Shown one piece after another: positions 26,805 through 63,700 of a stretch of DNA of 64,000 nucleotides. Made by a program: the position numbers and the translations under genes. This DNA comes from Trichodelitschia bisporula (Eukaryota). The stretch lies in NCBI GenBank assembly GCA_010356995.1, contig ML996704.1:558001-622000 (forward strand). The letters run 5' to 3'. The notes below the pieces were generated by a model. It saw nothing but the letters and a program-made list of their open reading frames with translations, searched no databases and was not told the DNA's origin. Position 1 is the stretch's first letter, and each line of letters begins with the position of its first letter.

Positions 26805-29800
26805 ATGGGGAAAGTGTCCTTTGTCGAAAATACCACACGCGAGCAGGATCTCATCGACAATGGCGAGGAGGAGTCCGTGAATGTTTTCCCCTACCAGGAC
26901 ACACCTGAGAACAAGTCATGGGCTGGTGCACTGCCGTTGAAGCAGGGTCTGTACGATCCAGAGCTTGAAAAGGATGCCTGCGGCGTGGGCTTTGCCGCGT
27001 AAGTTTTGCCATATGCGGTCCAGAGCGGTAACTGACGGCCACAGCCATATCAAGGGCAAAGCGAGCCACAAGATCGTCAGCGATGGTCAGTATCATGTTA
27101 TATAGAAAAATCCCCCGAGAATGCGGCTAACCCCGTCACAGCTCGTTCGCTTCTCTGCAACATGACGCATCGAGGAGCCGTCGGTTCTGACGCCCGGGAT
27201 GGCGATGGCGCTGGTGTCATGACATCGATCCCGCATAAATTCTTCGTCAAGAACTTTGAGCGGGAGCAGGGGATCAAGCTTCCTGAACTGGGCAAATACG
27301 CTGTCGGAAATCTATTCGTGAAGCCTGATGAGGCTGTGCGAAAATCCACGATCGCGACCTTTGAAGAAGTCGCTGATCCTCTTGGGCTGCGTGTGTTGGG
27401 GTGGCGCGAAGTACCTCGCGATTCTGCTCTGCTCGGACCTGCTGCGAAGTCCAGGGAACCCATCATCCTCCAACCGTTCGTCGTGCTGAAATCAGCTTAT
27501 GGCGAAGGCCAGGAGCCCAAGCCCACCTTCGATGAAGAGTATGACAACGCATACTTTGAACGCCAGCTCTTCGTGCTGCGCAAGCGGGCTACCCATGTGA
27601 TCGGCCTCCACAATTGGTTCTACCTTTGTTCCCTGAGCAACCGGAACATCGTCTACAAGGGTCAGCTTTCGCCAGTGCAGGTTTACGAGTATTACCATGA
27701 TCTCGTGAATGTGGATTACGAAGCGCACTTTGCACTTGTGCATTCGCGCTTCTCGACCAACACCTTCCCGAGCTGGGATCGTGCACAGCCGCTGCGCTGG
27801 GCCGCCCACAACGGTGAAATCAACACGCTTCGGGGAAACAAGAACTGGATGCGCGCCCGCGAGGGGGTCATGCAGTCGGCCCTATTCGGTGAAGACCTCG
27901 ATTCCTTGTATCCCATCATTGAAGATGGCGGTTCCGACTCCGCTGCCTTCGACAATGTCCTCGAACTTCTTGTCATCAACGGTGTCTTGTCACTTCCCGA
28001 AGCTGTGATGCTCATGGTTCCAGAGGCATGGCAAGGCAACAGGTCCATGGATCCCGCGAAGCAAGCCTTCTACGAGTGGGCTGCGTGCATGATGGAGCCC
28101 TGGGACGGACCGGCTCTCTTCACCTTCTCCGATGGTCGCTACTGTGGTGCCAATCTTGACCGTAATGGCCTTCGTCCTTGCCGTTACTACGTCACGGATG
28201 ACGACCGTATCGTGTGCGCCTCGGAAGTCGGTACAATCTGGATTGAGCCCGAGAGCATTGTGCAAAAGGGCCGTTTGCAGCCTGGCCGCATGCTTTTGGT
28301 CGATACCGTTGCCGGCCGCATCGTGGACGATAGCGAGCTCAAAGAGACCATCGCGAAACGCCATGACTTTAAGGCTTGGGTCGAGAAGCATTTGATCACG
28401 ATGCCGAGCGTGTATTCGCAGCTCACCGAGAAAGGTGAGCCTCTCGCCCACGAGTTGGATGCCTCGCGTCTCCAGGAGGATCCACGGCTCCGGGCCTTCC
28501 AATACTCGCTCGAGCAGGTCAGCCTGTTGCTTGGGCCTATGGCTGCCGACTCCAAGGAGGCTCTCGGGTCTATGGGCAACGACGCTCCGCTTGCTTGTCT
28601 GGCTCAGCAGCCCCGCCTTCTCTACGAGTATTTCCGCCAGCTTTTCGCCCAGGTCACGAACCCGCCCATCGATCCTATCCGTGAGGCCGTCGTTATGTCA
28701 CTCGAGTCTTATGTTGGTCCCCAGGGCAATCTTCTTGAGATGGACGAGTCACAGTGCCACCGTTTGCTTCTGCCATCGCCGATCCTTTCGATTGAAGAGT
28801 TCAACGCCCTCTCCAACATCCACAAGGTTTACCCGAACTGGACAGTCAAGGTCATTGACATCACCTATCTCAAAGCTGAGGGTGTTCAAGGCTTCCTCGA
28901 TGGGCTTGATCGCATTTGTGCCGCTGCCAGCGAAGGCATTGAAGGTGGATACAGTATCCTTGTCTTGTCCGACCGCGCGACTTCGAAGGATCGCGTGCCC
29001 ATCTCGGCTCTGCTGGCCACCGGCATGGTCCACCACCACCTTGTGCGCAACCGGTGGCGTGCAAAGGCGGCGATTGTCGTCGAAACTGGCGAAGCCCGCG
29101 AAGTGCATCACATGTGCGTCCTCGTCGGCTACGGTGCCGATGCCATTTGCCCGTACCTTGCCATAGAGTGCATCCTAAAGATGCAGCGCGAAGGTCTCAT
29201 TCGCAAGAAGCTCACCCCTGAGCAACTCATCGAAAACTACAAATACTCGTGCGATGGTGGCTTGCTCAAAGTTATGAGCAAGATGGGTATCTCTACGCTT
29301 TCTAGCTACAAGGGTGCTCAAATCTTCGAGGCTCTCGGCATTGACGACTCCGTTGTTGACCGCTGCTTCACTGGGACTGCCACACGTATCAAGGGTATGA
29401 CCTTTGAGCTCATTGCTCAGGATGCCATTGCTATGCACGAGAAGGGCTACCCCACGAACCCGATTGTCGAGGTACCCGGCCTTGCTGAGACTGGAGAGTA
29501 CCACTGGCGTGATGGTGGCGAGGCCCATGTCAACGACCCCGTTAGCATCGCCAACATTCAGGATGCTGTTCGGACGAAAAACGACAAATCATACGAAGCT
29601 TATTCCAAGTCCGAGTATGAGCAAATCAAGAACTGCACCCTCCGGGGTCTTCTCGATTTTGACTACGAGCAGCGCACGCCAGTTCCGGTCGATCAGGTTG
29701 AGCCCTGGACGGAAATTGTTCGTCGCTTTGTCACCGGTGCCATGTCTTACGGCTCCATTTCCATGGAGTCCCACTCAACGCTAGCCATCGCCATGAACAG

Positions 29801-32800
29801 GCTCGGTGGCAAGTCCAACACTGGTGAAGGTGGTGAGGATCCCGAGCGCAGCCGTTTGCTTGAGGGCGGTGATACCATGCGTTCCGCCATCAAGCAAGTG
29901 GCCTCAGGACGTTTTGGTGTGACCTCCAATTACTTGGCCGACTCCGATGAGCTGCAAATCAAGATGGCCCAGGGTGCTAAGCCTGGTGAAGGTGGTGAAC
30001 TGCCTGGCCACAAGGTTTCCGGTCCCATCGCGAAAACTCGGCACTCGACGCCTGGCGTTGGTCTCATTTCCCCGCCGCCGCATCACGACATTTACAGCAT
30101 TGAGGATCTTAAACAGCTGATTTATGACCTCAAGTGCTCGAACCCGCGCGCTCGCGTATCGGTTAAGCTGGTCTCGGAGACCGGCGTTGGTATCGTCGCC
30201 TCTGGTGTGGCTAAGGCAAAGGCTGACCACATTCTCATCTCCGGCCACGATGGTGGCACAGGTGCATCGCGCTGGACTGGTATCAAGTATGCCGGCCTGC
30301 CTTGGGAGCTGGGTCTTGCGGAGACTCACCAGACCTTGGTCCTCAATGACCTGCGTGGGCGTGTCATTGTTCAGACTGATGGTCAACTGCGTACTGGTCG
30401 TGATGTGGCGATTGCCTGTTTACTTGGTGCTGAGGAGTGGGGTTTCGCTACAACGCCTCTCATCGCCATGGGCTGCATCATGATGCGCAAGGTACGTCCA
30501 TGTGCTTCCTTTATCTCACTTGCTAATAAACTTTCAGTGTCACTTGAATACATGCCCTGTCGGAATCGCGACCCAGGACGTTGAGTTGCGAAAGAAATTT
30601 AAGGGGACTCCGGAGCACGTCATAAACTTCTTTTACTACATTGCCAATGAGCTCCGGGCTATCATGGCGCGTCTGGGTTTCCGCACTATCAACGAGATGG
30701 TTGGCCGCTCGGAGGTCCTGCGTGTACGGGACGATCTTCGCAACTCTAAGACGCAGAACATTGACCTCGGATTGATCCTTACTCCGGCTCACACCCTCCG
30801 TCCGGGAGTAGCTACCTACAATGTTCGCAAGCAGGACCACCGCCTGCATGTGCGCCTGGACAACAAGCTGATCGCCGAATCGGAGCTTGCGCTTGAGAAG
30901 GGCCTGCCTACGCGGATTGAGTGTGATATCGTAAACACCGACCGCGCGCTTGGTGCAACGCTGTCGTATCACATTTCGAAGCGCTATGGCGAGACTGGTC
31001 TTCCGACGGATACCATCCACGCCAACATCAAGGGCTCCGCTGGTCAGTCATTTGGCGCCTTCCTCGCCCCTGGTGTTACTCTTGAACTGGAGGGCGATGC
31101 CAATGATTATGTTGGCAAGGGTCTGTCTGGTGGCCGCCTCATCATCTATCCTCCGCGCACAGCTGTTTTCAAGGCAGAGGAGAACATCCTTGTGGGCAAC
31201 GTGTGCTTGTACGGTGCCACGAGCGGTACGGCCTACTTCCGCGGTGTTGCCGCCGAGCGCTTCGCTGTCCGCAACTCTGGTGCCACTGCCGTCGTCGAAG
31301 GTGTTGGTGATCATGGCTGCGAGTACATGACTGGTGGTCGTGTGGTTGTGCTTGGCTCTACTGGCCGCAACTTTGCTGCTGGTATGTCTGGTGGTATTGC
31401 CTATGTCCTTGACATGCACCAAGACTTCGAAACCAAGGTGAACCAGGAGATGGTTGAGCTCTCACAGATCACCGATCACACGGAGATGGCGTACCTTCGC
31501 GGTTTGATCGAGGATCATCACCACTTCACTGGCTCCGAGCTGGCAGCCCGCATTCTGCTCGATTATACCCGTGCAATTGAGCGCTTTGTCAAGGTCCTTC
31601 CTACCGACTACAAGCGTGTCATGGAAGAAGAAGCGAAGAAGGCCGCTGAGCTAAAAAAGAACGAGTATCCGCTCCCCATTCTCCCCGGAAACGCCGTCCG
31701 TGAACTGCACGAGAACACGCAAAAGAAGGAAAACGACGCAGCTGCCAAGGAAGAGAAAAAGAGCACCATCCTGGACATTGAGGAGAGCATCGGTGATGCT
31801 GCTGCTGAGAAGAAGCGGTCGGCTCTTGTGCTCGACAAGACTCGCGGTTTCATGAAGTACCAGCGCCGCTCAGAGAAGTACCGCAACCCGAAGACGCGTA
31901 CTCGAGACTGGCAGGAGCTGTCCCAGCGCCTAAACGAAGACGAACTGAAGTACCAGACGGCCCGTTGCATGGACTGCGGCGTTCCCTTTTGCCAGTCCGA
32001 CAGTGGCTGCCCGATTAGCAACATCATTCCCAAGTGGAATGAGCTTGTCTTCCAGAACCAGTGGCAGGATGCTCTCAACCGCCTTCTCATGACCAACAAC
32101 TTCCCTGAGTTCACTGGTCGTGTCTGCCCTGCTCCTTGCGAGGGTGCCTGCGTGCTCGGCATCAACGAGGACCCTGTCGGCATCAAGTCGATTGAGTGCG
32201 CCATCATCGACCGCGGTTTCGAGATGGGTTGGCTGGTGCCTCGTCCGCCGGAGAAGCGCAGTGGCAAGACAGTCGCCGTCATTGGCTCTGGCCCTGCTGG
32301 TCTTGCAACTGCCGACCAGCTCAACAAGGCCGGGCACAGCGTTACGGTCTATGAACGTTCCGACCGTATCGGTGGTCTTCTCATGTATGGCATTCCCAAC
32401 ATGAAGCTGGACAAGAATGTCGTTCAGCGCCGTGTTGACCTCATGGCCGCGGAAGGCATCAAGTTCCTTCCGGGCGTTACGGTTGGCGAGGGAGACGTTA
32501 CTCTTGACTCGCTGCGCGCCGAAGCCGACGCGGTAGTCATTGCCACCGGCGCCACAGTTGCGCGTGATCTGCCGATTCCGAACCGGAACCTCAATGGCAT
32601 CCACTTCGCCATGGAGTTCCTGCACAAGAACACCAAGTCGCTCCTTGACTCCGAACTCTCTGACGGTTCCTACATCAGCGCCAAGGGCAAGAACGTTGTT
32701 GTCATTGGCGGTGGTGATACCGGAAACGACTGCATCGGCACGTCCGTCCGCCACGGAGCGAAGTCGGTTATCAATTTCGAGCTCCTCCCGCAGCCGCCGC

Positions 32801-33381
32801 AGGAACGTGCCCGTGATAACCCCTGGCCCCAGTGGCCGCGCATCTACCGCGTCGATTACGGCCACGCGGAGGTCAAGACACACATGGGCAAGGATCCACG
32901 CGAATTCTGCATCATGAGTAAGGAGTTCGTTGATGATGGCAACGGCAATGTCAAGGGCATCAACACGATCCGTGTCGAGTGGACCAAGAACGTGAACGGC
33001 GGTTGGGACATGAGGCAGCTCGAGGGCACCGAGGAATTCTTCCCCGCCGAACTGGTTCTGCTCTCCATGGGCTTCTTGGGTCCTGAGGGCCGTGTGCTCG
33101 GTGACTCAATCGAGAAGGATGCTCGCAAGAACGTCAAGACTCCTCAGGGTCACTACAACACCAATGTCCCCGGTGTCTTTGCCGCAGGTGATTGCCGTCG
33201 CGGCCAGTCACTGATCGTGTGGGGCATCAACGAGGGCCGCATGGCGGCGCGTGATGTCGACTCTTACCTGACGGGTAAGGGCTCGCATTTGCCTGTCGCC
33301 GGTGGTATCGTCAAGCGCCCGCCATACGAGCTTCTCGGGAAGCCCGGGGTTCCGAAGGAGTTGATCACGGCGGCGGCTTAA
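26805..33381 (+). CDS. GLT1: NADH-dependent glutamate synthase (GOGAT, fused alpha+beta), three introns
   Basis: Propeptide followed by 'KDA|CGVGF' (Ntn Cys), '[12 protein letters not shown]', '[12 protein letters not shown]', '[12 protein letters not shown]', and beta-chain '[10 protein letters not shown]' and '[11 protein letters not shown]'. Confidence 0.98.
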
Positions 33382-34496: not shown

Positions 34497-35759
34497 CTAG
34501 CTGGAGGTGCCATGCGAGCGTTGCGCCTGGTAGCGGGCACTGCGTCGACGCTGCGCCTCGCGCTCCTGTTGGAATTGTTCGGCGGCGGGACGGGCACGGC
34601 GCATGACAGGAGAACTAGCCACGAAGCTCGAGTCGCCAGCACCGAATTCGAGATCGAACTCGGTGCCAACGCTCTCGCGCGTGACACCCTCGAGACCAAG
34701 TGGCAGAGGAGGCTGGTGCGTGGCGCCAGGACGCAGGACGGAGTTGGTGCTCGCAAAGGATATGTTGTGGGTGAAGGGGTTGGGAGCTTCGACACCGGGT
34801 TCTTCCTCCGAATCTGTGAAGTCCTCGGCTTCGGTGTCTGTGTGCTCGTAGCTGCCCGCAGAGGGAATGTCATCGTCGAGATTGTGACCGAAATCACCGT
34901 CTGGATCGGCTTGCTCGAGGTCAAGCTCCTGATGCTCTTGCAGGGCTGAGGCAAGCTCAGAGGGTACGAAATGGACTGCGCCAGACTCGGAGGCGCCGAG
35001 GAGAGCGTTGGCGGAGATGGAGAGGAGGCTGCCTTCCATGAAGCTGGAAGCATTGAATGTAGGATCAGCGCCGTTGATGCTAATTTCGTTCTCCTCATTC
35101 TCTTCGTATTCCCCCTCCTCTTCTTCTTCTTCCTCCTCCTCTCCGTCTTCTTCGCTCTCCTCGGTCATCTCCTCGTCTGAGTCCTCTTCTTCTTCTTCAT
35201 TCTCACCCTCTTCCTCGGTTTCGGCATCTGGAATCTGAGCATCGAGATCCCAGTCTTCACCGTCTTCCATGACATCCACAGCGCCGTCTTCGCCTTCAGC
35301 AGCCTCTTGAAGTTCAAGCAGCTCGCGCTCGCGGCGTTCGGCTTCCTCGCGCTCATGGGTTTCAGCATCGTCGTCGCGGATCTGCTGTAGAGTCCTGGTG
35401 ATAGCCGGAGGGCGGATCCAGTGGGACCCAAAGTTGCGGACGCTCGACTTGCGCTGATCGATCGTCTCTTCATCACGACGAAGCTGACCATGAGTGTCGC
35501 GTTGGGCGAGAGGGATGTAAGGATGATGATGCTCGTTCTCCGCACCGGGATTGCGGGATTGCTGTGCCGGAGCCGCGCTCAGGCGTCGGTTCTGACCTTG
35601 CGGAGGGTTTGGCAGGGGATTGGTGCCATTCTCCGTAGCGGTGGCGCGTGTGGTGGTAGGAGGATTGATCCACATATCCTGGGGATGGTTAGCAGATAGA
35701 TGAGCGCGGGGATGTGGAATACATACATCCCGGGGGATGGTGTTTGGAAAGGTAAACAT
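34497..35759 (-). CDS. APC/C subunit Apc15/Mnd2-like
   Basis: MFTFP start with an early intron, Apc15p-like 'IDQRKSSVRNFGSHWIRPPAITRTLQQ', and a long acidic region with 'DLDAQIPDA' and 'NLDDDIPSAGSYEHTDTE'. Confidence 0.82.
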   Translation of the reverse strand: MFTFPNTIPRDVCIPHPRAHLSANHPQDMWINPPTTTRATATENGTNPLPNPPQGQNRRLSAAPAQQSRNPGAENEHHHPYIPLAQRDTHGQLRRDEETIDQRKSSVRNFGSHWIRPPAITRTLQQIRDDDAETHEREEAERRERELLELQEAAEGEDGAVDVMEDGEDWDLDAQIPDAETEEEGENEEEEEDSDEEMTEESEEDGEEEEEEEEEGEYEENEENEISINGADPTFNASSFMEGSLLSISANALLGASESGAVHFVPSELASALQEHQELDLEQADPDGDFGHNLDDDIPSAGSYEHTDTEAEDFTDSEEEPGVEAPNPFTHNISFASTNSVLRPGATHQPPLPLGLEGVTRESVGTEFDLEFGAGDSSFVASSPVMRRARPAAEQFQQEREAQRRRSARYQAQRSHGTSS

Positions 35760-36992
35760 CTCCGCGGTTATGCTCGCGCGGGAGCGATGAGTCGAAGTTG
35801 GTGTGCCAGATGACACTGCGGGGTTGGAGGATGTGGGGTGGGGTTGAGGATGTTTTGGTGTTTGGAGTTGGAGTGTTTAGAGCAAGGCGCGAGGCTTACA
35901 AGCACAGGCCACTTGGTCATCGCCAAGGTCACAAACATCCAGGGTCATAAACATGTGATTTTCAGCACCACTGAGTCATGTGATAAGGCGTCGTTATCGA
36001 TAAGATTGGGGTTGGTGTGTGTGGGGCGCCTGGGCAGCTGAAGGAATGCAATTCTGAGTGCAGCAAACATATCCTGTCTGCTCCGTATTCTGTGCTCATC
36101 GTAATTTGCTGAGCTTACCGCAATACGCCTATCTCTGCATACGAGGTACTCACCTTCAGCTAAATGTTAGGATTCTTGTACCACCGGGGAAGCAATTGTT
36201 GTAGCACCGCATCACCAGACACCCAATTGTACAAAAAGTGCACATCGACGTGCATCATGCAAATCAGCGGCTTGATGATGAAATGCTCTGTTGACAATTG
36301 CCTGCCCCGCATTGGCTACGGTAGGCTAGGGCGCAAGTTGGCGTCGTTACTTGAAGCCATTCAGCCACTCATATCGAAGCAATACACCCCGTGCGGCTGA
36401 GTCGAAAGGCTGGTTCCTCTCTCGCCGCCTCTGACCTACCGGCCTAACGCCTGGGGAGGGGAATCGGAACTTTCAAGGACCTGTTCCTTCGACTATGCGC
36501 GCGCACGATGGCAGAGCATTGGTGACTGAATCGACCTAGTTCCCTCTGGATGAACCCAGGACCCATGGCATGATAACACCGGTTGCTAGGCTTGTATCCC
36601 CCCCACAACCTATATAGTTGGCCCGTCATCTGTTCATTGCCGCCGGTGTCCGAACGGCAGCCCCCTTCTCTTTTATCACCCCTCCAAGTGCCATCAAGCC
36701 CCAATCTGACAATAACATCTGCACCCCTTTCCTCTTCTCACCCCGCACCTCCAGGTACGAACGCCTCGGTAGCGCCATAAGCCCAAATCGCCCAACATCA
36801 CCCCCCTGCCTCTGCAGTTAGTGGCCATCTCGCACTAAACACGCGGTCCAGACCTCGACAGCCAGTTCTCTCAATCCCGTGGCGCTAAACATTCACATAC
36901 ATATATTCTCCCCCTTCCTTATAAACACCGGAGATCACCACACCTTCTCTCCCATTTCTCCCCTTCCAAATCCATTCATTTCAACCGCAGCC

Positions 36993-39864: not shown

Positions 39865-39898
39865 CAGGGAGGAGCAGGGAGGAGCAGGGAGGAGGGGC
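39865..39898 (+). repeat. (CAGGGAGGAG)3 plus GGG, matching the canonical G-quadruplex pattern
   Basis: GGG-N7-GGG-N7-GGG-N4-GGGG read directly. Confidence 0.75.
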
Positions 39899-40546
39899 GG
39901 TTGAAGGAAGTGAGTTGCGTCTTCCGCCAATAATATACTACGTATGCCTTTCCATTGGCTCCTTCTCCTCCGGAAGGCTTGTTCTGAGAAGCATCACGTG
40001 ATCGGAGTGAGCAATAGCGTTGGAGCAGCGGAAGGTCGGCGCGTTGTTGGGTCGCCCAAAGTCAAATGTCGCGAGGCACCCGGCCAACGGCACTCTCAAC
40101 AACCACAATCCACTCTTCCATCAACTCCATCAACGCCCTTCATCTCGTCACATTCTACCTCATCTACCGCCGTCGTCTCATCTGGTCCCCACGAATTATT
40201 CCCGAATCCCCCGAATTATCTTGGCAACAAAAGCCATCAACATTAAGTCCTTTCACGGCAAAAAAGTGCGCATCTCAAATCACGATCGAAGTTGTAACGA
40301 AAGTTGTGGTCGCTGGTGGGGGGTGACCACCACCCTGGGCGTGGTAAAAGGCGCTGTGGGCAGGCTTAAACTTGTCAATTTCATACGTCCTGCTTGCTAC
40401 CCCCTCCCATCACCATCGCAAAGCAAAATTTCTTGCAAACAATTACGGCCATCTTCGCTACGCTGTCGTAGCCGTCTGTACTTTTGGTACAAACCTTCCA
40501 GGCGTGATCCAACACGCTTACCTACCGTTGTGTCGAGCGAGGAGGC

Positions 40547-42724
40547 ATGCGCCCTAAGGAGCTCAGATTCGAAGGAGGTAGCACATCTCTAAAGTTGTTC
40601 CTCGTTCACTGCCGGACTCCCACCTTCCTGCAGCGTAACGTGAGAGCCGTCCTGAACGCGCATGAGAAGGCGGGGGGGAAAGCGAAAAACCCATCAGTGA
40701 GTAGGAAGCCGACAGCAGTTCGTATCGCTTGGGACACTGTGGATCTACCTGAAGAAGCCATCTGGCATCGAGCACAGGAAATGGCGGAACCGCAGTTGGT
40801 GGTGAGTGTGAAGGGGCTGAAGCCTATGAGAGGCCGCAATGGAGATCCTCGCATCGCTCTGAAAACTCGGCTCGGGCGCTTCCAGGTCGTCCAACTTTCA
40901 TGCGATATTGAAGTCTCCGTCTGGCATACTCAGGACAACCTTAAGCGGAGCCTCTGGCGAGAAGTCCAGACAGCTCACCTGGTCGGGAGAGTCTACGAGG
41001 ACAACACCATCGACTTGAACGTCAATATCGAGAAGCTGTTTGTCATCAAAAAGAAGAACCTTCTGGTTCGGATCCAAAATGGGAAGAGATGGGTCCAGGG
41101 CCTCGACAATAACTACGAAATGTGCCTGAAGCTTCAGTTCCAGTCCAGCGAGGACGCCGAACAGATCATGCCCCTGCTGTACGGCTCGCAGGTAGCTTCT
41201 CCTTACACGCCCAAGACGAACCTCGCTGCGAAATGGCTTGGTCTTCCCAAGTGTCCACCGGCAGGTACGGTTCTCCCAATCAGCCGCATTTTTGAAGGCA
41301 GGAAGAAGATGACGGAGTACGGCTACGAGATTGAAGTGGGCTGGGAAACTGACCTAGATGTCGGCTGCGAAGTCGACATGGGGTGGCAGGTCAGGGGTCC
41401 TATCTTAAACAACGTCAATCACCTCATCAAGTCGGCGGCAAGCAAGCTGAAGCCCGAAGCTGAAGCGATGGACGTTGACAAGAATTCCGTCAAGGTCGTA
41501 TATCGGTGGGACGATCGCGCGGTGACTGTGAGCGGTTTCTCGTGTCTTTATTGCAGAAAGACGGAGAAAAGCGCCACTCGCCTGCGGTTTCACCTCGAAC
41601 ACTTCCATGCTAGTCGCAAAGAGACTTTCAGCATCATTAGCCGCGATGGCCGTCATGTCACGTTCTCTATGCCAAAACAAGGAAAGGGGGGTGGGAGAAA
41701 GAGTCCAGAGCCGGAAGCGTTCCCAGGGAAGCCGATTGTTGTCAACGGCCCCGACCCGAACACCAAGGGAATGCCCAATCCTACTGGCCACCTTTGGGTC
41801 GCCCCGAACGACACTTTTGATATCAACAAGTACTTGGACGGCGGCGACACGTGGGTCGCGCGGGGCCTAAAAGGCAGAAAAGGCAAAGCCACCCCGTCCG
41901 CAGCGCAGTCAGATGTCGAGGAAGAGACTCCTCGCAAGGGCCCCGAAGACGTGCAGCTCACGCTAAGCCGTGGACCTACCGCTCGTAAGCGCTACGTGGT
42001 GCCCTATCCAGAGCATGGGGGACAGTTCTGGTCGACCAAGGAGAAACGCGTTCTTCGCCCTGGCGAGTTCCTCAGCGAGAGCGACGATGAGCCGGAGATG
42101 TCTTGGCAGGCACCACAGCGACGCGCTGTATATGCCAACATTAATGTCTGTGAGGATGAAAAGGATGTGCTCGTGAGCTGGGAACTGCACATCATGCGCG
42201 AGAATCTAGCGGGCGACCGCTACTACGGTGATGCGGCCATCCGCTACACACACGCGCGGATGAAGTGGCTATTGCAGAAGCCGGAGCGTTTGGAGGCGTG
42301 GTATAAGAAGCTCCGGCGTATGAAGCAGCAGAAACTCCTCGAGGAGAACTTTCTCGTCTTCATTCTGGAAATGATACGCAAGCAGAACGAGAAGTACTAT
42401 CGCGAGAGGGAGATTCCAGACTCTGAGGGTGGGGATGCGATGCAGATCGACGACGACACCCCGGAAGTGGAAATCCCCCAAACGAACCCGATCCCACGTA
42501 GGCGCAAGGATGCATGTATTTGCGGCGAGCTGGCTACGACTCTAGCAGACACTATCATGTGTTTCAACAGCGATGTAAGACAAACTCTCCAGATCTTCTT
42601 GCGTTTCTAACTCTTATACTAGGTTTGTAAATACCCCCTCTTCCACCTCAAGTGCATAGGCCTCACAACCCCGTTGCGCGGTTGGGTATGCCTGGAATGC
42701 ATGAAGAAGGAAGAAGAAGCATAA
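40547..42724 (+). CDS. SUZ12: Polycomb SUZ12-like protein (C2H2 finger + VEFS box) with C-terminal PHD finger
   Basis: N-terminal 'RTPTFLQRNV', C2H2 'CLYC...LRFHLEHFH', VEFS-like 'LRPGEFLSESDDEPEMSW...VCEDEKDVLVSWELHI'. Intron 42575-42622 completes C-x-C...C...C...H-x2-C...W-x-C-x2-C; TAA at 42722-42724. Confidence 0.82.
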
Positions 42725-43340: not shown

Positions 43341-44991
43341 ATGGTCAGATTCAACGCCTGTATTCGTCAATTCTTCAGACCGCTGTCCTTTTCAAAACCA
43401 TATTCCAGCAGTACTAAAGCAGCCAGGATGAACCAGTCGCAGCCCTTTGAGGAGGAGCGACTCCCCTGGTATCGCGCGGACCAGTTTTATCCCGTACATA
43501 TGGGAGAGACATTTATCTATAAGTACAAGGTTGTGGGCAAAGCTCGGATACGGTGCCTACTCTACTGTTTGGCTGTGCCGAGATACGAAGTCAAGAAATC
43601 TACCTAGGACCATTTGGACTTAGAATGCTGACTGATACAGCAGAGATTCTGGCTTTGTAGCCCTCAAAGTCTGTACTCGGGATGAGACTGGATCCTTGCG
43701 AAATAATCGAGAGCTGAAATTTTACGAGCATGTCAGTCCACTCAACTCACAGCATGACGGCCAAGCATATATTCGCGGCCTCTTAGAGACATTCGAAATC
43801 AATGGTCCATCTGGAAAGCATTTATGTCTCGTTCAGCCTCCAATTCATATGACCATCCGGGAGCTTCAGTGCCAGAATCCGCCGAAGCGGCTCAACAAGC
43901 AGATTTTTAACTGAACCCTTTTCAACCTGCGTAGCGGACTCACTTTCCTTCATGATGAAGCAAAAGTGGTACATACCGGTGGGTTTGTAATTGCTATATA
44001 CCTTGAGCATTGAATTGACTTCCTCACAACAGACATTAATCCGTCGAACATTGATAAAAGGAGATGTGTGGTCAATGGAAACATCACAGCATCACAAGTT
44101 AGACCGAAGGTCTGTCCATGAACAAGTTGCTTAATTGTCAAAGAGGTGGGGATCCCGAGTCTACTTATACTAGAGCCCTGTGGCTGAAACTAGGTAAGGC
44201 TGAACACAGCCACCGCTTTCTAACAAACATCACGCTAAGCATTCACGATGAGTCTCTACTCCCAGGAATTTGAACGAGCGGAAGCCGAGGAACCATCGCC
44301 AATAAAAGTAATCGATGAAACTCGCACGATCTATGGTTCTCGAAAACTTGGTCTTCCGAAGGGCTCGCTTTGGGGCCAGCCTGTCCTGTGTGAGTTTGGA
44401 GAGGCGCGAATTGGCCAGACCCATAAAGGTCTGATTCAGGCTGAGCTCTATCGTGCCCTGGAAGTTATGTTCAACATGGAATGGAACTATAGTGTTGACA
44501 TCTGGAATGCAGCTGTCCTGGTAAGTTTTCCAATCCCTGGTAACTATCGCTAAACCTACATTCTACTAACTTATCCCTCCCAGATATGGGATCTATTTGA
44601 GGGTCAACACCTATTCATGCTCTAGATGAAGCTCAAAAAGTGTCAGCAACACACCACGTTGCTGAGATGGTAGGGTACCTTGGAAGCCCCCCTCTTGAGT
44701 ATCTACGTCGGAGCGAAGTCACAAACAATGTTTTTGATGAGAAAGGCCAGTATGCTCTCGAACTCTGCCCAGCTTTCTCATGATCTAACGGGTTGTTAGG
44801 CCACTGGAAAGGTGCAGGAGGTGTCGCGGTGCCAGAAATGTCTCTCGAGCGAGCTGAGATTGTCTTGGAAGGTGAAGAGAGAAGGCAATTCCTCATTTTC
44901 GTGAGGTCGATGCTCAAATAGTTACCAGAAGGGAGACGGGGAGCCGCCGAACTTCTTACCGACGCCCTGCTTGGAAGGGGCTATTCCTTGA
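43341..44991 (+). pseudogene. SRPK-like (CMGC) protein kinase pseudogene
   Basis: 'FEEERLPWY..FYPV', 'GK/LGYGAYSTVWLCRD' (+1 frameshift near 43540), 'VALKV', 'HLCLV', TGA 43912, 'HTDINPSNI', frameshifts near 44262 and 44616, DFG changed to EFG, APE changed to ALE, TAG 44919, and an LTR insertion. Confidence 0.92.
44052..44225. mobile_element. Solo LTR (174 bp) with 5-bp target-site duplication AACAT
   Basis: AACAT(44047-51)-TGATAAAAG...CTTTCTAACA-AACAT(44226-30): TG...CA ends with an imperfect terminal inverted repeat. Removal restores the kinase frame PSNITLSIHDES. Confidence 0.88.
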
Positions 44992-54199: not shown

Positions 54200-57100
54200 C
54201 TACTGCTTCACTCCTCCCATAGCCGCCATCAGCTTCGGGAAATTCTGCGCCGCAAAGCTCTCGGAGTAGAAGCTATGCGCCGCCGAATGCGCCTCGACCA
54301 GATTATGCGCCAACTCATGGCACAGCGTAACGTACCAGTAAGCTAGTGCATCGACCCGCGCCTCGCCACGTTCCCAAGACGCAGCATGTAGTGAATCCCA
54401 AAAGGCAAAGTTGAAGAATAAAGCACCGCCCTTGTTGAATGCGATGGTCGTTGCGCCCGGGTCGTGGAATATGTGCACTACGGAGCTGTTCACGTTCATC
54501 ATCCGCGCGAGTGAGAGGATTACGTCTGCGAAGGCGCGCAAGCGAGTGCTGTGTGCCGCCAACCATGCCGCGCGGTCGCGCCCCCCCTCGCCGACGTACA
54601 CGCGCACGCCCTGCGCCGTGTTGCCGGCCAGGTGGATATGTGCCGCGGGACTGGCGTCGCAATACCCGCCCTTGACCACCTCTGGCACTTCCGGGTCCTT
54701 CATCGGCGCTGAATTGAGCGTCGCCGTGCTGTGCGGCTTGCACGCGGAAACGGCGCGCGAGAACGAGGCGGAGATGTCGGTGGTGGAGGTGGGGGGCGCG
54801 GGGGTGGAAGGCCGGCTGGTGGAAGGGGGCCGGTTAAAGAGGTTAGTTACGGTGTCGGACCAACCTGACAGCATCTTTGAGGACGGTTTGCGCTTGCTCG
54901 GCTCGCGGGGCGGGGAGTCGAAGCTGCCGGGCATGTGGGCCACGGTGTCGCCGGGTGAGTCCGGGCTCTCGGGCTGGGGCTTTTCGGGGCGCGAGGGAGT
55001 GGGAGGGAGGGATTTGTTGGGCTGGGTGGGGGTTCCGACGGGTGTTCGGCTGGGTTCTTGCTCGGCGGCGCGGCGGCGGGATTCGTCGGCGGCTTGTAGT
55101 TTGGCCCGTTCTTCGTGGGCGATGCGCGTCTCGATGGCCTTGAGCCGGAGGATGCGGTCGACGTTGTACCCTTTGTTGCGGAGGCGGAGGAGATCAGTGG
55201 CAAGCACCGTTTCGAGGGCCAGGGTATCGTGCTGCTTCGGACGCTTGAGGAGCAGGCTAGAAATGCATTGGCTGATTTGGTAGAGATCGTAATCGGGGAT
55301 TACGCAGAGAGTGTGCGAGCTCTTCGTTGTCTTGACCATGGTTGCGGAGCGGCGCTCGCGCATCGGACGCACGGGATAGCCGCGCAGGGAGTAGCTGATG
55401 TTGACGGAGGAAACCATGGTTATGACGAGGAACTTGTCCAGCCATTTGGGGTCAACGCGCTGGTCGCGCGGGTATTCGTGCAGGAAGACGCGGGCACGTT
55501 CAGCGATGAGCTTGTACAGCTTCGGCGCTTCGCTCTGGTCGCGCAGTTCGTGGCCGAGGCGGCGGTCTTCCATGACGAGGGACGACAGCTTAGGAACGCC
55601 GAGGTCGGCGTAGAACCGCTCGAGTATGTCATTTTGCGGTGCGACGTGGAGGTACTCGCGGAACATCATATATGCCCGAATTTCGTCCTCGATAACGACC
55701 TCAGTGGCCTTTCTCAGCGAGTACTGTCGGACGACGTCATCCTCCTCCACCTCTAGCTCCTCACTGTCATACTCTTCACTCTGCTTCCTCGATGACGATG
55801 TCAGTTCCTGGTAGCTCAAGAGACAGGGCGAAGAACGGAGAGCATTCCATAAGGTTTTGTCTTTGGAAAGGATATCGGAGTTTTCAGCAATCTTTTTGAG
55901 CAGCTCCAGATACCGGTCTTCTTGAATCATGTTGAGAATCCTAGAGGGATTTTCCGCGACCATGCGAGCTAGCTCGCTGCTGTTCGGCTCAAATTTGCCC
56001 CCGATCTTAAGGAGGAACGCATTGGCCGAGTCACCGAAATTGACAAAGTCGAAAATGTCCCCGTACTGACGCGAGTCACCTAAGAAGCACATCTTCGGTG
56101 AGATCATGCGCGTCCCAGAGCCGTCCTTCTGGCTTGTTTTTGGCACAATAAAAGCTGAACCGAGAGCCTCAACAAGCTTATTGTCAAGTTCACTTAAGCG
56201 CGTTGCAAAGTATTTGAACTTTGCTTGAGCCTCTTGAAAGCTGGTTGGAGGATCGAACATAAGTTTTTTGGCGCAAAGGTCGATTGGAGGATGGGGTGCA
56301 ACACCAAACTTGAGGGCGTGTGGTGTAAGAGCAGGGTCTATTAGCGGAAACCCCATGACAGCGGCACTGCGCTCAGAGTAGCATTCGCTCGGTGTCATGG
56401 CCACGGGAAAGGCCTTGCCTTCGACAGGCAAAATCGGCGAACTTCGGATGATCTTGATGTCGAACGCGCCATACCCATGTTCGTGGTGCATATCGATGTA
56501 ATACCCGAGGGCCATGTTGTACCTCCAAGAATCTCCCTCTTTTATGGCTTGCAGCATGATCTGAACGAGCTCTGGTACGGTTGGAAACGGCTTGAGTCCG
56601 AGGGACCTCAGAAACTTTCCTTCTGGGCTGTTCGAACGATAAAATCCTGGCCAGCGGAGTACGGGAAGTTTGAGGGTACGCAGAACGTCTACAGGCTCAA
56701 AGAGTTCTGAGACTTTGTAAAGCTTATCGGGTGTGGAAACTGAAGCGGCTCCGATATCTGCTGGACAGAAGGCTGTGTTCTTCAATCGCACCATATCCGA
56801 AGCTGGGATATCATCCCGCACGGAGACGAGGTAATGCATCAGGTCTGAGAAACTCCATTTTCGAGGCGACACGTTGCTAGAGTCTGGTCTTGATCCCATC
56901 AGCCTCTCAAACACAACCGTGATCTCTAGCGTTTTCCGAACACCCAAGGCGGAGAGAACATTGTCTTTCACGCCGCGGGGAAGTCCCGTTACCACAGGCA
57001 AATCATCGAAAAGCTTCACGGTTGGGAAGTACGCATCTGCCGGCCGACGCATGCCAATCTTCGTCGGCATGATTGTATGTAGCGCCAGCGTCTGCTCTGA

Positions 57101-59449
57101 GAGGATGGTCCGAGTCGTCTGGTTCATGTGGTCCCAGCATTTCGAGAGAACAAGGAGTGCTTGGCCAGCAAATTCCGCAGATTTCGTGATGTTGTGCTCG
57201 AGAGGCAACGTTGATTTCTGCGCACCAGCGATCAGGAAAGAAAACCAGGTGGCCACACTGAGCTCCTCCCAACCGAGCGCCTGGAGTTTCGCGTGCGGGA
57301 TATTCCGCGTGAACATGAAGGGAATCGTTGAGGGTGGCAGAGGCATGTTAGGAGGGACTCTCGACCCACTCAAGTATTCTTTGATGTCTCGTAGGACCAC
57401 AAGCCTCTGCTCTCCCGGTGCTGTAGAACCTGCCTTTGACGCTTCCTGATTGCTACTGATTGATGCGACAGCTGAGCCGAGCAGATCCTTGACGACGGAG
57501 CTACTGAGAGCATCCGGGGCAGCTTGATCACATGCCCATTTCAGGAAGTCTTGCAGTTGTGCTTCATTGAGCGGCGTCGATTCGAGCACCTCCTTAATGT
57601 CCGGCACCGTGATTTCGCCTATCAAGCGCCGCTGATAAAGTTTGGTGATGAATCCGGCACCCTCGCTATTCATCAGAGTTGGTGGAATGACTGCGATTTC
57701 CTTCAAAAAGCTCAGAGGAAGATCCACAACCCGAGTTTTCTTGCTTGAGCGTACGCCTTTGGTGGACAAGACATCAATTGTGTTTGTGACTGAGCAATCC
57801 CAGAACGCTTCTTCAATAAGCTTTCCGACTATGGATGAGGGGGTCGATTCCTTGGAAAAGAATTGTCGACATATGTGCGAAGCTTGATCCAGAATCTCCT
57901 TGTCTTCATCCGTAATTACATCACGCTTGGTGGTGGCGAATGACGCCCGGACGCGTTTGTTCAGGGCACTCATCTCTCCAGCATACGCAATACGGCATGC
58001 TATGCCGGCCACACGAAGCATCTCCGTATTCCAAGTTTTGACGTAGCGAGCATTCAGGTCAATACTCTCCCGTTCGACTGTAGGAATGACAGAGGGAGCT
58101 GAGATGTGACAGAGTAGGCCAGTGGTCTGAGCTGTGGGGAACCCAATAAAGATTCGTCCGTTTTTGCTCGGCAGCACGGAGTGGAAGAGCTCGGAAGCTT
58201 TGGACGCTGTGAGTCCAGAGAGCGTCGAGAGCGAGGCGGACGTTTCATCGTGCGACGCTGTCAATATCACGATGCGTGTGCTCTTTGGGGGAGGCTTCTT
58301 CGTGGCGCGCTCGAGCTCATGTGCGAAGGTTGAAGACACAGCCGCAAGTACGTTTACGGTGCTGATCCTCAGAAATACAGTGCCTCGTGATGTGGCTGAC
58401 AGAGCATCATAGACCTCTTGCTCCTGCTTCCGCTCCGCCTCCTTTGCGGCCTTTTTTGCAGGGGTGGGGGCCGCTGCAAAAGCCTTCAAGCGTGAAAATA
58501 CGGCTTTTATACCGGGAGTTGAGCTCTCATATTCTTCTGATGGCTGGCTTTGCGCAGCATTCTTTTGCAGGGACCAGCCGACCACATTCATCCACTCGGC
58601 ATCGATTTGAGTGCTCTGTTGAGTGACTTCTGATATCTTCATCATTGCCTCCTTAGTCGACAGCTTGATGTCTCTCGGGAGTGGGATATTGACACCAGGC
58701 GCGCTCTTCTTAGAAAGTGACATGATCTTCCAGTCGTCGATGTGCAGGTCGATATTCTCCAGAGAGACGAACGTCAAGCTGGTGCACAGAAATTGGCACA
58801 GTGAGGCGAGGTCAGGGACAGGCGAAGTAAGGCTGCGGTAGTTGAGCACGAAGCAGGTTTCCTGTCGCGCGTGCTGTGCTGGAAGAATGCCCGATTTCGT
58901 GAATAAGCTGTTGCCCTTCCATACAAAGGCCATAGTCTTGTCGCCGGAAATGACAAAAGGCTCCTCGCAATCAGCGAAGACACTGTAGAAACCGACGCCG
59001 AAAGCTCCGATTTTGGTCTCGTCGGGATTGCCCTCAGCAATACGCTTGAGACGCGTCCAGTCGCAGTCGTTGAAGACTTGGCCATCGTTGGAAACGGTTA
59101 GCCGGAATGTGGTGTGGTTGGTGAGCGTGTGCTGCAGGACATCGGACGGGTTTCCCGATGATGGTACTGGAATCGCTTTTGAAGGCAGTGTCTCAAATCT
59201 GATGACAACCTTTTTCGCCGCAGCGTCGGCTGCATTTTGAATGAGTTCCCGAAGAGTGGTCCAGTCGCTGGAGTACCGGGCCAGCACCTTGTCTATGAGG
59301 GCACGACTAGGATCTACGGTTAGACGGAGGAAGGGTTGACGCCGGTTTTGAGGTATTGCGACTCACGTGTTGACCGTCACGGCTTCCTCTTCCCCACTTG
59401 CACCTATGGCCTGATCGCGCAGTCGCGCGAGATCCGACCAACTCGACAT
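54200..59449 (-). CDS. Large uncharacterised sacsin-like GHKL ATPase / DUF3684 protein with C-terminal HExxH motif
   Basis: Exon 1 MSSWSD...EEEAVTVNT, then 'LRELIQNAADA', 'NDGQVF', 'IGAFGVGFYSVF', 'IFIGFPTAQTTG', and 'LCHELAHNLVEAH' near the C-terminus. Confidence 0.88.
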
Positions 59450-60758
59450 GGTGGGTGAAGTTGATCGACAGTCGTTAGACGGCGCGGGGTCCCAAAGAAT
59501 AAGGCTGGGTAGTAAATAGCGGGTGGTGATAGCGGTAGTGGTAACCCCGCGAACCCAGGAGACTTCTCCGTCCGGATTCAGTTACAAAGCCCACAGTATG
59601 GCTTGATGTGGCCTCGGTTCCACGGTGATCTATGTTTGGTGTGTTTTCATGCGATCCAGCGCTATGCAGAAATGGTGGCGGAGAAATGAACAGAACGATG
59701 ACAAGGAGGAGCTCGAAGTGACCAGAGGGAGCTATTCACCGGCAGAACGCGGCGGCTTCTTTATAAGAGATTAGGGAGGCGAAATGCTACGGAAGCTGAA
59801 GCGGAGTTAAGACCTGAAGGCAAGAGTCGAGGAAGGTGAGAGAGTATGGTAGGCACGCGTACCTGAGAGTGTGGCGAAGCACATCATTTGTAGGATGGGG
59901 CCAAGGCTATGAGTGTTTTGCGTCGTATATGGCCGGCGACGGGCCAACTAAGGCTTGTCCGGGCTTTGGCTGTACAGTAGGCTGCAGTGGGTTGTGTTGT
60001 AAAGGTTGCATGAACATGTATGTTGCGGACCTATGATCGCGGCCAGTGGACCGAGCTCCACACCGAAAGGTGACGTTGATCGGGACGGCCGCCACCTTCC
60101 CGCCCCGGTCTGTGGCGCTCTCACCGTTTCCAGCTGTGGCGTCCCGTCGTCGGCAAGACTGTGAACGCCGACTTCACCGACCACGGTCAAAGAGGCTTTT
60201 AAAGCGATCGCTACATCCGTACTGTTGTTCGATTCAACGTGCGGATATTGGTTAAGTAAGACTCCTTTCACACCCACTCCGAAGAAAGCATACATGTACA
60301 TCGCGTAACTTAAGTCTCATCAGGTAAGGCTGCAGGAAAACCTCGAGATTCGGGATCCGCTTGCAAGAACTCTTTTGTTCCGTCAGGCGGAATTTCCTAC
60401 ATCCCCAGATTCTGACAAAGGCTGGCGCTGAAGTACTGTGCAGCGCTAAGACTCTATTAAAGTTAGACGCGCGCTAAGCCTAAATGCCAGAGCCAAGCGC
60501 GCTTCACCCACACCCCTTGACCTCTGTGTCCTGCTGGTCGCCGAACATCAGTGTTAGGAGCCGACTTTGTGCTCCAAATCCCAATGCCATCAAAATCCCA
60601 GTCCGTTCCCGTTTTGCTTCGTGTGTCACACCACCTTCTCCTCCATCCATCATGGCTAACGGGCAAGCAGATAGTTTTGCGCGAGAGCTTGCAAAGGCGC
60701 AGGGCGCTGGTTGTGCGGTTCTCCACGCCGTCTATCCCCCCATGTTCACTTTCACAAC

Positions 60759-63700
60759 ATGACTCACTCGCCTTTATCGCCATCACGTGTCAAGGTTGTA
60801 GCGCTTCCTGTCGGGAAGATCAGACGCTCCCGATTTACCACTTTTTTTGATGCCTTAACACGCGTCAATGAAGTACGGCTCGGCGACGTGAGCCCGGATC
60901 CACGCCCGAATCGAAGTACGCTCGGCGTTGCCTGCGGTAGACGCCCGCTAACTACTGCAGACTTGTTTTCTCCTCAGGCATTTCCGGATGGCACTGTCTT
61001 TTACGAGTTTGCTACGGCGGTGCCACCCCAATCTCACCTTCAGCTGTCTCCATTTGAGATCTTTCGTGAACCTCTCGTCATCATCGGTATTGGAGATGCA
61101 GCGGAGTATCGCGATGAGAGCTCGTCAACAGGTGTAGATGCTCCAGAAGAAGGCGCATCCAGCTATTTGGGCGAATTCGAGGCTGCGATAGCCAGTCTCA
61201 AGGAAGAGTATGCTCGTGTGCCTTTGCATAAGGTGATCCTCTTCGACTTCAAGCCATCTGTTCCGGTCACACCGCTCCCGGAGGATGTTATGTCTGTTCC
61301 ACCACAGCAGCAATGGAAAACGACTACGATAAAGACCTTGATGTGCGACGTCACGTCTGCATTGCTCGGCGAAATGACAACTCTTGCCCAGTCTATAAAA
61401 GGCCTGCCCACAGTAGCTTCGCCCTCCGCACCACAGTACAATGGCCCTGGATTTAGGCTACACGAGGATCTTGCACCTTTGAGCCGCAGCAATTCTGGAG
61501 GTGGCATCAGCCGCTCGGGCTCACCTGCAGACGGGTTCCAGGCGCATCGCATGTCCATGCCGGTGTTGCCTTCGTCAAATTTCGCATCTGGAGGCGACTC
61601 ACCGACACCTGAAAGTGGATATCACACTCCGCCAGCGAAGACCTTTGATGAGATTGCCAGCAACGAGCAGGGACTTGCAGGACTCAAAGGCTCGAGAGCC
61701 CTTCCGGCGAACCAGTCACGGGACCCGAGTCGGGATCGAGTATCGGTGCACGGGTTCGGTCCAGGGAGTATCAACGAGCGGAATCGTAACAAGGGAAAAT
61801 GCCGAGTAGGAATCGTCATTGGGTCGCTGTACCTCCAGGCGGGGAGGTGGCATGACGCGTTTCGGGACCTCGCCGACGGGGCTGTGAAGGCTCGATCGTA
61901 TAGCGATCATTTGTGGCAGGCGAAGTCGCTGGAGAATCTCATGAGTTGCATGCTTTTGCTTGCGTGGTCTGGAGCCACCTTCGAGGTTTGTCTTCCCTAC
62001 TCTTGTCTTTTGCTATACTGACAGTTCTAGATCCCACCAGTGTGCTATCCCGTTCCAGAAAGACCATCAAGCTCAAAATCGGGGTCATCTGTGCCCCAAA
62101 GTCCCCCGCCTGACCCAGCACTTGCCTCCAGGCCACATACCGATCTCCTCCGAGAATTGCGGAATCTCCTCCCCGACATGATAAATATGATCATCAGCAT
62201 CTACGCGCGTTCCGGCAACTTCTCGGGCGAACCTGTTCCTCAGCTTGTGTTCTCCGAGTTCGTCATCCGCTCCGCCAAAATTCTGACTGCAATCAATCTT
62301 GCAGGGGGTGTTCTGAGCAAAGATGTTCTCCAGCATGTTGTTAGGGATACCCCTTTAGAGGCATACGTACCCGACCTCTCCATCACTAGGGCAAGCATCC
62401 ACCCATCAAGATCATCGATAGCCGACCTTCTTCTTCGGGCTATTCCGGAATCGTCTGAGCAATCGGGAATAACGCCACTGGACCAAGTCCTTGTTCTGGC
62501 TGGCATAGCATCTGCGTTTTCCACACTCGGATTCCAGCGCAAGAAGGCAATGCTGATGAAGGAATACCTTTCAGCGCTAACACAGGCGCTAGTACAGGCG
62601 AAAAAGCAGAGCGCCGCGGAAGCTGGAATCCACCCCTCTGCTAATCTGACAGCTGCTGCTACCGCACTAGCTGGAGAAGCCGAAAGTGGCATCGAGGAAG
62701 TCCTCAATCTATTATGCCAGGTCTATGGTATCCCGGAGTCGAAATGGTCCCGCTCCATCGGCTCAGATGCCTTGCTGCAAGATCCATCCGAACCTTCCGG
62801 TAGGCAAGAAGCTACAATCCATAAGCCCGCCCCGCTACCGGAGCAGCTTGTCGGCAACTTCGTCCTACGCTTCTTCGGCAGCATAAATGTGAAGACCGAT
62901 GTGTTGAAGACATGCATTGAGCTTTGTGAGGCCCTACCCGATTTTCACGGCATCTTGCACTACACGTCGGCACTGCTGCGCACTGCCGGACCGGGGATTG
63001 CGCCGAGCACGGATACGAGTGACGTTCTCGTCACACTATCTAAGGAGGAACAGATTCTGCTCGCGAACAGAATCACAAAGACCGTTGCCGATGGCAGAGC
63101 TCTGGGTTTGCGCGTCGAAGCTGAATACTGGGACGAGTTCCTTGTCCGAGGAATCTACCTTGTCAGGCCGGAACAACCGCTCGTCTTGCATCCTCACCGG
63201 AGATCAGACGCCGAGATCCAGAAGAAGGCCGAGAAGCGTGGTCCCTTCATCCACAACCCCTTTCTGGAGAAGAGAGAAGCCAAGGCTGAAAATCTGCTGG
63301 TCGCTGGGGATACAAGCGAGTTCGTAGTCTTGCTCCAAAACCCTTACGATTTCGACGTCGACATAGAGCACATCAAGCTCATCGCCGAAGATGAGTGTTT
63401 TGCATCCGCTCAGAACCTAGCTTTGAAGCCGTACCGCACGCAGAGCTTCTCGGTATCGGGTATCGTATCGAAGACAGGAGAGTTATTCATCGATAGCTGT
63501 ACCGTCAAGGTTAAGGGATGCCGTGAGCGGAGCTTTCCCATCTTCAGCGAACCGTGGGCACCGCAGAGCGATATTAAGCTGAAAAGCGTCGGCCTCCTCA
63601 AAGCCCAGCATCCTCCCGCTTCTCGCCCAACCTCTGACGCATCCATTTTTGGGCGTCAGACTCCTGCACGCTCATTCCCAATCCCCTCTACTGTCTCGCT

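Follow-up and report, generated by a model that had tools for sequence, protein, structure and literature searches.

SUZ12 is the VEFS-Box scaffold subunit of Polycomb repressive complex 2 (PRC2), the H3K27 methyltransferase complex, and the VEFS-Box is the part of SUZ12 that lies within, or contacts, the catalytic lobe of that complex. Here, we describe a SUZ12-type gene in a 64,000-nt stretch of the genome of Trichodelitschia bisporula, a Dothideomycete of the order Phaeotrichales (assembly GCA_010356995.1, contig ML996704.1, positions 558,001 to 622,000 of the forward strand; "the window" below is this whole stretch, and coordinates are counted from its first letter). Its product ends in a PHD finger that is split by a short intron and is of the ING type, with the side chains through which ING fingers read methylated H3K4 replaced both in this protein and across its relatives.

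SUZ12 proteins with a PHD finger have been described from other fungi. The Su(z)12-like subunit of Neurospora crassa has a PHD that is missing from other Su(z)12 orthologs (Sharaf et al. 2022, PMC9018016; here, as for the papers cited below, statements cover the part of the text that was available), and proteins combining a VEFS-Box with a PHD are reported there throughout the Dothideomycetes, Leotiomycetes, Pezizomycetes, and Sordariomycetes. These fungal Su(z)12-like proteins, N. crassa SUZ12 among them, have the same C2H2 finger, VEFS-Box, and C-terminal PHD as the protein described here, and the class to which T. bisporula belongs is covered. That paper provides a SMART match for the PHD and a domain tree; its available text is silent on ING type, cage loss, the conserved intron, and function. 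The Suz12 of Magnaporthe oryzae (MoSuz12) is likewise described as zinc-finger C2H2 plus VEFS box plus PHD finger (bioRxiv 10.1101/2021.04.20.440724), thus the same architecture by description; the deletion made there was of the whole gene, and the available text includes no study of the PHD itself. Animal and plant SUZ12 proteins (SUZ12, Su(z)12, EMF2/VRN2/FIS2) share the VEFS-Box, the C2H2 finger, and the scaffold role in PRC2 (PMC10638273) but have no PHD of their own (PMC9018016), as a preliminary description of the T. bisporula locus had also stated. In animal and plant PRC2, PHD-bearing partners join in trans, in contrast to the built-in PHD of fungal SUZ12. The plant partners presumably include the VEL proteins. 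PCL is named as a PRC2 accessory subunit in PMC10638273, and PMC8788455 cites a PHD-PRC2 reference. The SUZ12 finger goes unmentioned in the available parts of PMC7348808, PMC8788455, and PMC10638273, and the literature searched, including with phrases such as "Suz12 PHD," yielded no functional study of it.

The stop-to-stop table of open reading frames (ORFs) contains one long frame at 40508-42610 (+), with its first ATG at 40547, and a separate 33-aa ORF at 42623-42724 (+) that starts VCKYPLFHLKC. Spliced together (40547-42574 plus 42623-42724, +), they give a SUZ12 protein of 709 aa. The 676-aa translation of exon 1 is matched by one public protein at 100% identity and coverage, the 709-aa [quoted passage not shown] (hereafter P0001). 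The spliced product equals P0001, the last 33 residues of which are the small ORF. The parts of the gene are as follows.

40547..42574, + strand: SUZ12 exon 1, aa 1-676, starting at the ATG of the public model and ending with the codon that adjoins the intron; the translation is free of stops
41543..41608, + strand: C2H2 zinc finger of SUZ12 (Cys333, Cys336, His349, His354)
42014..42304, + strand: VEFS-Box, aa 490-586 (Pfam PF09733)
42377..42508, + strand: linker between VEFS-Box and PHD, aa 611-654, poorly conserved
42515..42574, + strand: first half of the PHD finger, Cys657, Cys659, and Cys672 to Asp676 (family profile positions 2-26)
42575..42622, + strand: last intron of SUZ12, 48 nt, phase 0, one codon before the fourth Cys
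42623..42700, + strand: second half of the PHD finger, with Val677, Cys678, His684, Cys687, Trp697, Cys699, and Cys702 (profile positions 27-53)
42701..42724, + strand: last seven codons (MKKEEEA) and the TAA stop, from the sequence, the ORF table, and the public model

Word-indexed homolog searches brought up no protein beyond the query, or beyond the query and one relative; an exhaustive HMMER search returned 358 relatives at E ≤ 1e-3, and the best 150 of these 358 were examined. The 69 among them that have a complete finger make up alignment A1, from which all residue counts below are taken; a Pfam scan took in 60 of the 69 and omitted P0001, which was scanned separately, and the eight longest proteins. 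The VEFS-Box of P0001 scores 30.9 bits against PF09733 (aa 490-586; cut-off 23), and the same domain is listed at E ≤ 0.01 in 51 of the 60 relatives scanned. Among solved structures, aa 494-610 match, weakly but specifically, Ezh2-Suz12 fusion chains of Chaetomium thermophilum (E 1.7e-3) and human SUZ12 (E 3e-3 and weaker). The four C2H2 residues Cys333, Cys336, His349, and His354 are nearly invariant (≥90%) in A1; Pfam Zn_SUZ12 has no match in P0001 at E ≤ 10, and it is seen in many relatives at subthreshold or threshold scores. From identity and architecture together, the gene is almost certainly the T. bisporula ortholog of fungal SUZ12, the PRC2 subunit, with a C-terminal PHD. The assignment to SUZ12 in the preliminary description, and the VEFS homology for which it had proposed a profile search, both hold.

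The splice that completes the finger has the expected signals: donor GTAAGA, a CTAAC at 42607-42611, and an acceptor TAG at 42620-42622. The last codon of exon 1 (Asp676) is complete, which puts the intron in phase 0; its retention would bring the frame to a stop at 42608-42610, within the branch-point CTAAC. Exon 2 runs from 42623 to 42721, and the TAA stop occupies 42722-42724. As a control, a family PHD profile built from 33 relatives, with P0001 left out, was run against the 2284 six-frame ORF pieces of the window. The best match was the 33-aa exon (E 3.7e-9, profile positions 27-53) and the next best was the end of exon 1 (E 0.0049, positions 2-26); all remaining pieces had E ≥ 0.39. The two halves of the profile adjoin exactly at the intron, and the spliced protein covers positions 2-53 without a break (49.5 bits). 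Not one of 20000 shuffles of the product reproduced the full Cys4-His-Cys3 pattern, nor did any of the 2284 unspliced ORF pieces contain it; for the second-half pattern, the single instance in the window lies inside the 33-aa exon. The splice at 42575-42622 is thus confirmed as far as canonical signals, the public model, and comparison with relatives can do so. The preliminary description, which had claimed a complete Cys4-His-Cys3 PHD at the C-terminus after removal of this intron, was exact in its coordinates, from the codon of Asp655 (42509-42511; that of Cys657 is 42515-42517) to the stop at 42722-42724.

The finger has the ligand spacing C-x1-C-x12-C-x5-C-x5-H-x2-C-x11-C-x2-C (below, C1 to C7 are its cysteines in order). 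When a profile of 34 family PHD segments was searched against solved structures, the first 20 matches were ING/Yng/Pho23/Png chains (6.3e-12 to 8.1e-7), so that by profile the fingers of ING1-5, Yng1/2, Pho23, and Png2 are the closest solved relatives (6e-12). After the ING-type chains came NSD2 (4e-4), AIRE (2.7e-3), and PHF21A, also called BHC80 (8.3e-3), the last two matched about nine orders of magnitude worse than ING. P0001 alone matches the ING4 and ING1 PHD chains in the PDB at E 2e-4. In the ESM Atlas, the model for aa 653-709 can be aligned with clusters of PHD and ING proteins at TM 0.58-0.70, although the model is poor overall (pTM 0.31), and this fold evidence may serve as a lead only. 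The SUZ12 finger and the ING fingers have in common the C-x-C start, the spacing from C3 to C4 and from C4 to the His, the FH-x-x-C-V/I-G-L core, and the Trp two residues before C6; the SUZ12 finger differs in a 2-residue insertion between C2 and C3, and the protein lacks the ING N-terminal domain. In P0001, the eight zinc ligands, Phe683-His684, and the structural Trp697 are all intact, and the equivalent of Trp697 is present in 69 of 69 relatives. By these matches, the SUZ12 finger is to be classed as an ING-type PHD, in line with the comparison to ING fingers drawn in the preliminary description.

The resemblance does not extend to the binding residues. ING1-5 conserve a cage of Tyr, Ser, Met, and Trp, and an Asp and a Glu hold Arg2 of H3 (PMC5000080). 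In the alignment with ING4, the four cage residues are replaced by Ala656, Thr665, Thr669, and Leu682, and the two Arg2-binding acids by Phe673 and Pro681, whereas the Trp forming the floor of the Arg2 pocket persists as Trp697. The preliminary description had correctly read Ala, Thr, and Leu in place of the ING Tyr, Met, and Trp residues; the loss goes further than was noted there. It is also family-wide. The ING-Tyr position, immediately before C1, is aromatic in 0 of 69 relatives; the ING-Trp position is aromatic in three, acidic in 30, Ala in 11, and Leu in five; and in no relative are both aromatic. Of the two Arg2 acids, the one at C3+1 is retained as Asp in 12 and Glu in four relatives (acidic in 16/69), and the one three residues before the His as Glu in 2/69, among the 12 commonest residues listed. 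Judged by its residues, the SUZ12 finger is certainly not an ING-style H3K4me3 reader. Because it cannot work like its ING relatives, any functional hypothesis must start from a cage-less pocket.

The preliminary description had proposed to map the phyletic range of the fusion. The best 150 relatives, sorted by the Cys/His pattern at the C-terminus, fell into the following groups.

Full Cys4-His-Cys3 finger near the C-terminus: 69/150
First PHD half only, followed by a short unrelated tail: 53/150
First PHD half by a looser pattern: 5/150
Both PHD halves, with an insert between them: 3/150
Second PHD half only: 1/150
No trace of a PHD: 19/150

A PHD, whole or partial, is therefore present in at least 131 of the best 150 of 358 relatives, and a C-terminal PHD is the normal state of SUZ12 in the Pezizomycotina. 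The named relatives include Lineolata, Aplosporella, Lindgomyces, Coniosporium, Lepidopterella, Massariosphaeria, Acidomyces, Teratosphaeria, Meristemomyces, Oleoguttula, Neodothiora, Phyllosticta, and Sphaerulina, all of which we take to be Dothideomycetes, and Calycina and Rutstroemia, presumably Leotiomycetes. Xylona heveae (Xylonomycetes) and Pyrenula (Eurotiomycetes) are also among them, which adds two classes to those given in the available text of PMC9018016. Some relatives are already named "Zinc finger PHD-type domain-containing protein" in the source databases, as are the nearest ESM Atlas clusters. The fusion of VEFS-Box and PHD is real and already in print, and this locus is one more ordinary example of a known architecture. 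Its presentation as a novelty in the preliminary description was overstated, given a feature typical of the lineage (131/150) and published for other fungi (PMC9018016; bioRxiv 10.1101/2021.04.20.440724).

The many partial fingers deserve comment. In first-half-only models, the tail often starts with Val-Ser, as expected from read-through of a GT donor. A scan with P0007 for the DNA of relatives yielded no confirmed locus, and we compared instead alternative models of near-identical genes, each set from the same 90% cluster and differing only in whether the intron was spliced, with these results.

P0012 (Lepidopterella), truncated or read-through: near-identical P0153 has the whole finger
P0022 and P0155, truncated or read-through: near-identical P0154 (Acidomyces) has the whole finger
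P0157, truncated or read-through: near-identical P0158 (Rutstroemia) has the whole finger
P0168, truncated or read-through: near-identical P0135 has the whole finger

Because each pair breaks one residue before the fourth Cys, as in the T. bisporula gene, the position of the last intron is common to the relatives, and the truncated SUZ12 models are annotation errors in which that intron was missed. Since more than a third of the public models examined miss this 3′ intron, domain surveys will undercount the SUZ12 PHD. For no fewer than 53 of the 150 nearest SUZ12 relatives (P0003, P0009, P0012, P0022, P0157, P0168, and others), the public model is cut inside the PHD.

Mean pairwise identity among the relatives is 0.38 for the PHD, 0.31 for the VEFS-Box, and 0.13 for the linker, and the PHD is the best-conserved block of the protein. 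The similarity of PHDs outside the ligands follows that of the VEFS-Box and of the N-terminal part (Mantel rho 0.27 and 0.40, p 0.001), and because of this tracking, the data fit one old fusion followed by vertical inheritance.

Because it is conserved, sits on a core scaffold subunit, and directly follows the domain that contacts the catalytic lobe, the finger is a candidate module for a role in PRC2. The mode of action that we put forward, as a possibility somewhat short of probable, is the generic one of PHD fingers: The finger would hold the N-terminal tail of H3, with K4 methylation not needed and probably disfavored. In this mode, the H3 peptide would add a strand to the sheet of the finger, and the finger, on its variable linker just past the VEFS-Box, would lie near the catalytic lobe, where it could keep a substrate nucleosome in place on chromatin without active marks. 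A tail-binding module adjoining the VEFS-Box is well placed. Also in favor are the hydrophobic residue before C3, which H3K4me0 readers share, and the acidic residue at the ING-Trp position in 30 of 69 relatives. Taken as a whole, the explanation (SUZ12 identity, architecture, and a finger that holds the H3 tail) is tentative, with a chance of being right that we would set a little below even. A stronger version seems unlikely: The finger may descend from an ING-type H3K4me3 reader that had its cage dismantled in a forerunner of the Pezizomycotina, may thereby have turned from mark-seeking to mark-averse, and may give fungal PRC2 a built-in test, on the same tail, for "no H3K4 methylation."

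Several observations weigh against a finger that holds the H3 tail. To begin with the domain itself, no Pfam PHD model reached its cut-off in P0001 or in the 60 relatives scanned. The best such match in P0001 was PHD-1st_NSD at 12.2 bits (cut-off 27); PF00628 had no match there at E ≤ 10 and was found in seven of the 60 relatives at 17-20 bits, below its cut-off of 24. These subthreshold scores help explain why the PHD of fungal SUZ12 is easily overlooked. In addition, when the eight ligand columns, which were fixed by the selection of sequences, are left out, the identity of the PHD falls to 0.26, so that no strongly conserved binding surface is evident. Such lineage-by-lineage variation is what would be expected if the finger coevolved with a fast-evolving partner. 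In that case, it would be a protein-protein module that binds a non-histone ligand, either an accessory factor of fungal PRC2 or another surface of PRC2 itself, and serves in assembly or recruitment and not in histone reading. The replacement of every ING histone-contact side chain fits this, PHD fingers with non-histone ligands are established (PMC3241642), and the H3K27me reader BP1 of F. graminearum binds Suz12 directly, at a site left unmapped in the available text (PMC8501951; PMC12454251). However, the location by the catalytic lobe and the ING ancestry suit a histone ligand equally well. We consider a non-histone partner somewhat unlikely in absolute terms, yet nearly as likely as the generic H3-tail mode.

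A second alternative is that the finger is a dedicated H3K4me0 reader like BHC80 and AIRE, in which Asp655 binds unmethylated Lys4 and steers PRC2 to H3K4-unmethylated chromatin, as the preliminary description had proposed. The Asp two residues before C1 on which that proposal drew is indeed present. We take it to be equivalent to Asp489 of BHC80 and Asp297 of AIRE. A table row in PMC3471955 is consistent with AIRE Asp297 mattering. H3K4me0 readers have no cage, an acidic cluster N-terminal to C1, and a hydrophobic residue before C3 (PMC3241642). The first of these features is shared by P0001 and its family, and so is the third, as Met671 in P0001 and in 49 of 69 relatives; BHC80/PHF21A and PHD1 of AIRE are likewise cage-less, with a hydrophobic residue before the third Cys (PMC3241642). 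The defining acidic cluster, in contrast, is absent: The six residues before C1 include one acidic and four basic residues in P0001, and just four of 69 relatives have at least two acidic residues outnumbering the basic ones. Nor is the Asp conserved as a functional residue would be, with Gly in 23, Asp in 12, and Glu in six of 69 relatives at that position (acidic in 18/69). The Arg2 acids are lost, and the similarity to AIRE and PHF21A is much weaker than that to ING, as the profile values above indicate. Cage loss is compatible with binding of unmethylated K4 and is no proof of it. The idea of an H3K4me0 reader is thus weakly supported, and in its dedicated, BHC80/AIRE-like form we regard it as quite improbable.

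Charge is a further difficulty for any reading that involves the H3 tail. Two features, the basic RRRK flank and the absence of both Arg2-binding acids, speak against a basic ligand such as the H3 tail, and the family conserves basic residues at C3-5 (50/69), C4+2 (Arg in 49/69), and C5+6 (54/69), which would suit an acidic ligand better. It might therefore be proposed that these Lys and Arg residues make the finger an anchor of PRC2 on DNA, RNA, or an acidic patch. The mean net charge of the finger in the family (+1.2) is in keeping with this, as is the DNA-binding activity reported for BP1, which is a fungal PHD protein (PMC8501951). Yet in P0001, where the net charge is −1, other residues take the place of all three basic ones (Ala667, Tyr680, and Pro693 at C3-5, C4+2, and C5+6), a poor fit here, and in the family these residues do not covary with an acidic residue at the ING-Trp position. 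Binding to nucleic acid or another acidic surface is accordingly a very unlikely role for this finger. The covariation analysis (Fisher p 0.16-0.45) led us to reject a salt bridge between the acidic ING-Trp position and the basic positions as a means of closing the old pocket. All three basic residues are missing in only three of the 69 (P0001, its closest relative P0002, and P0052), and because of this the T. bisporula finger may differ from those of its family, one more reason for caution about the H3-tail mode.

Lastly, the 19 relatives without any trace of a PHD count against the tail-holding role and could be cited for a decaying or purely structural remnant, in which the finger of this lineage folds on zinc and has no specific ligand. 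Because whole clusters (P0034/P0077/P0149 and P0027/P0111) are among the 19, the PHD may be dispensable in some lineages, and the shared lack of family-typical basic residues in P0001, P0002, and P0052 would agree with decay. However, the missing PHDs may be truncated gene models, the eight ligands, Phe683-His684, and Trp697 of P0001 are intact, and the identity of its PHD to those of relatives (0.35) is near the family mean of 0.38. Relaxed constraint on the P0001 finger is thus unsupported, and a remnant is highly improbable, retained as a low-odds rival. As an observation in its own right, the members of both clusters are VEFS-Box relatives with no PHD trace throughout, and the VEFS-Box scores of P0034/P0077/P0149 are unusually strong (46-70 bits); the absence of a PHD in the two clusters may reflect true losses or consistently truncated models.

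The surroundings of the SUZ12 gene are an ordinary chromosomal context, with no tRNA genes and no Rfam matches found in the 64-kb window. The other genes assigned are the following.

789-2468, − strand: RNA12
9616-13053, + strand: Argonaute gene, ~27 kb upstream of SUZ12, with ArgoN, ArgoL1, and Piwi in two consecutive ORFs
18100-20448, − strand: Ctf4/Mcl1
27036-33378, + strand: large glutamate synthase gene, as two long ORFs that overlap at 30484-30584, a split presumably due to an intron
34497-35873, − strand: Apc15
54200-59359, − strand: DUF3684/sacsin-like gene
60675-63998, + strand: Trs120

Upstream of the SUZ12 gene, at 39866-39893, there is a short direct repeat of GGGAGGAGCA in ~2.5 copies. 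Just downstream, at 43429-43623 (+), an ORF that starts MNQSQPFEE runs into a second overlapping frame containing the motif KLGYGAYSTVWLCRD, which we take to be a kinase-like glycine loop. Pfam gave no match on the ORF pieces of 43429-43623, and the overlap may reflect a frameshift, a very short intron, or a pseudogene.

What this analysis adds to the published architecture is the ING type of the finger and the loss of its cage and Arg2 pocket throughout the family; the intron common to the relatives, together with the many gene models truncated by it; the occurrence in Xylonomycetes and Eurotiomycetes; and the atypical surface of the T. bisporula finger. Filamentous fungi lack PRC1, and the PCL PHD is present only as poor homologs in early-diverging fungi (PMC7348808). 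If the finger were mark-averse, as in the stronger version above, it would stand in for the trans-acting PHD partners (PCL and the plant PHD proteins), which are missing from fungi, and would account for active genes being kept free of H3K27me3. It is not settled how the PRC2 of filamentous fungi is directed to its targets, and a conserved finger on the core scaffold readily suggests itself as a candidate module for targeting the complex or for holding its substrate.

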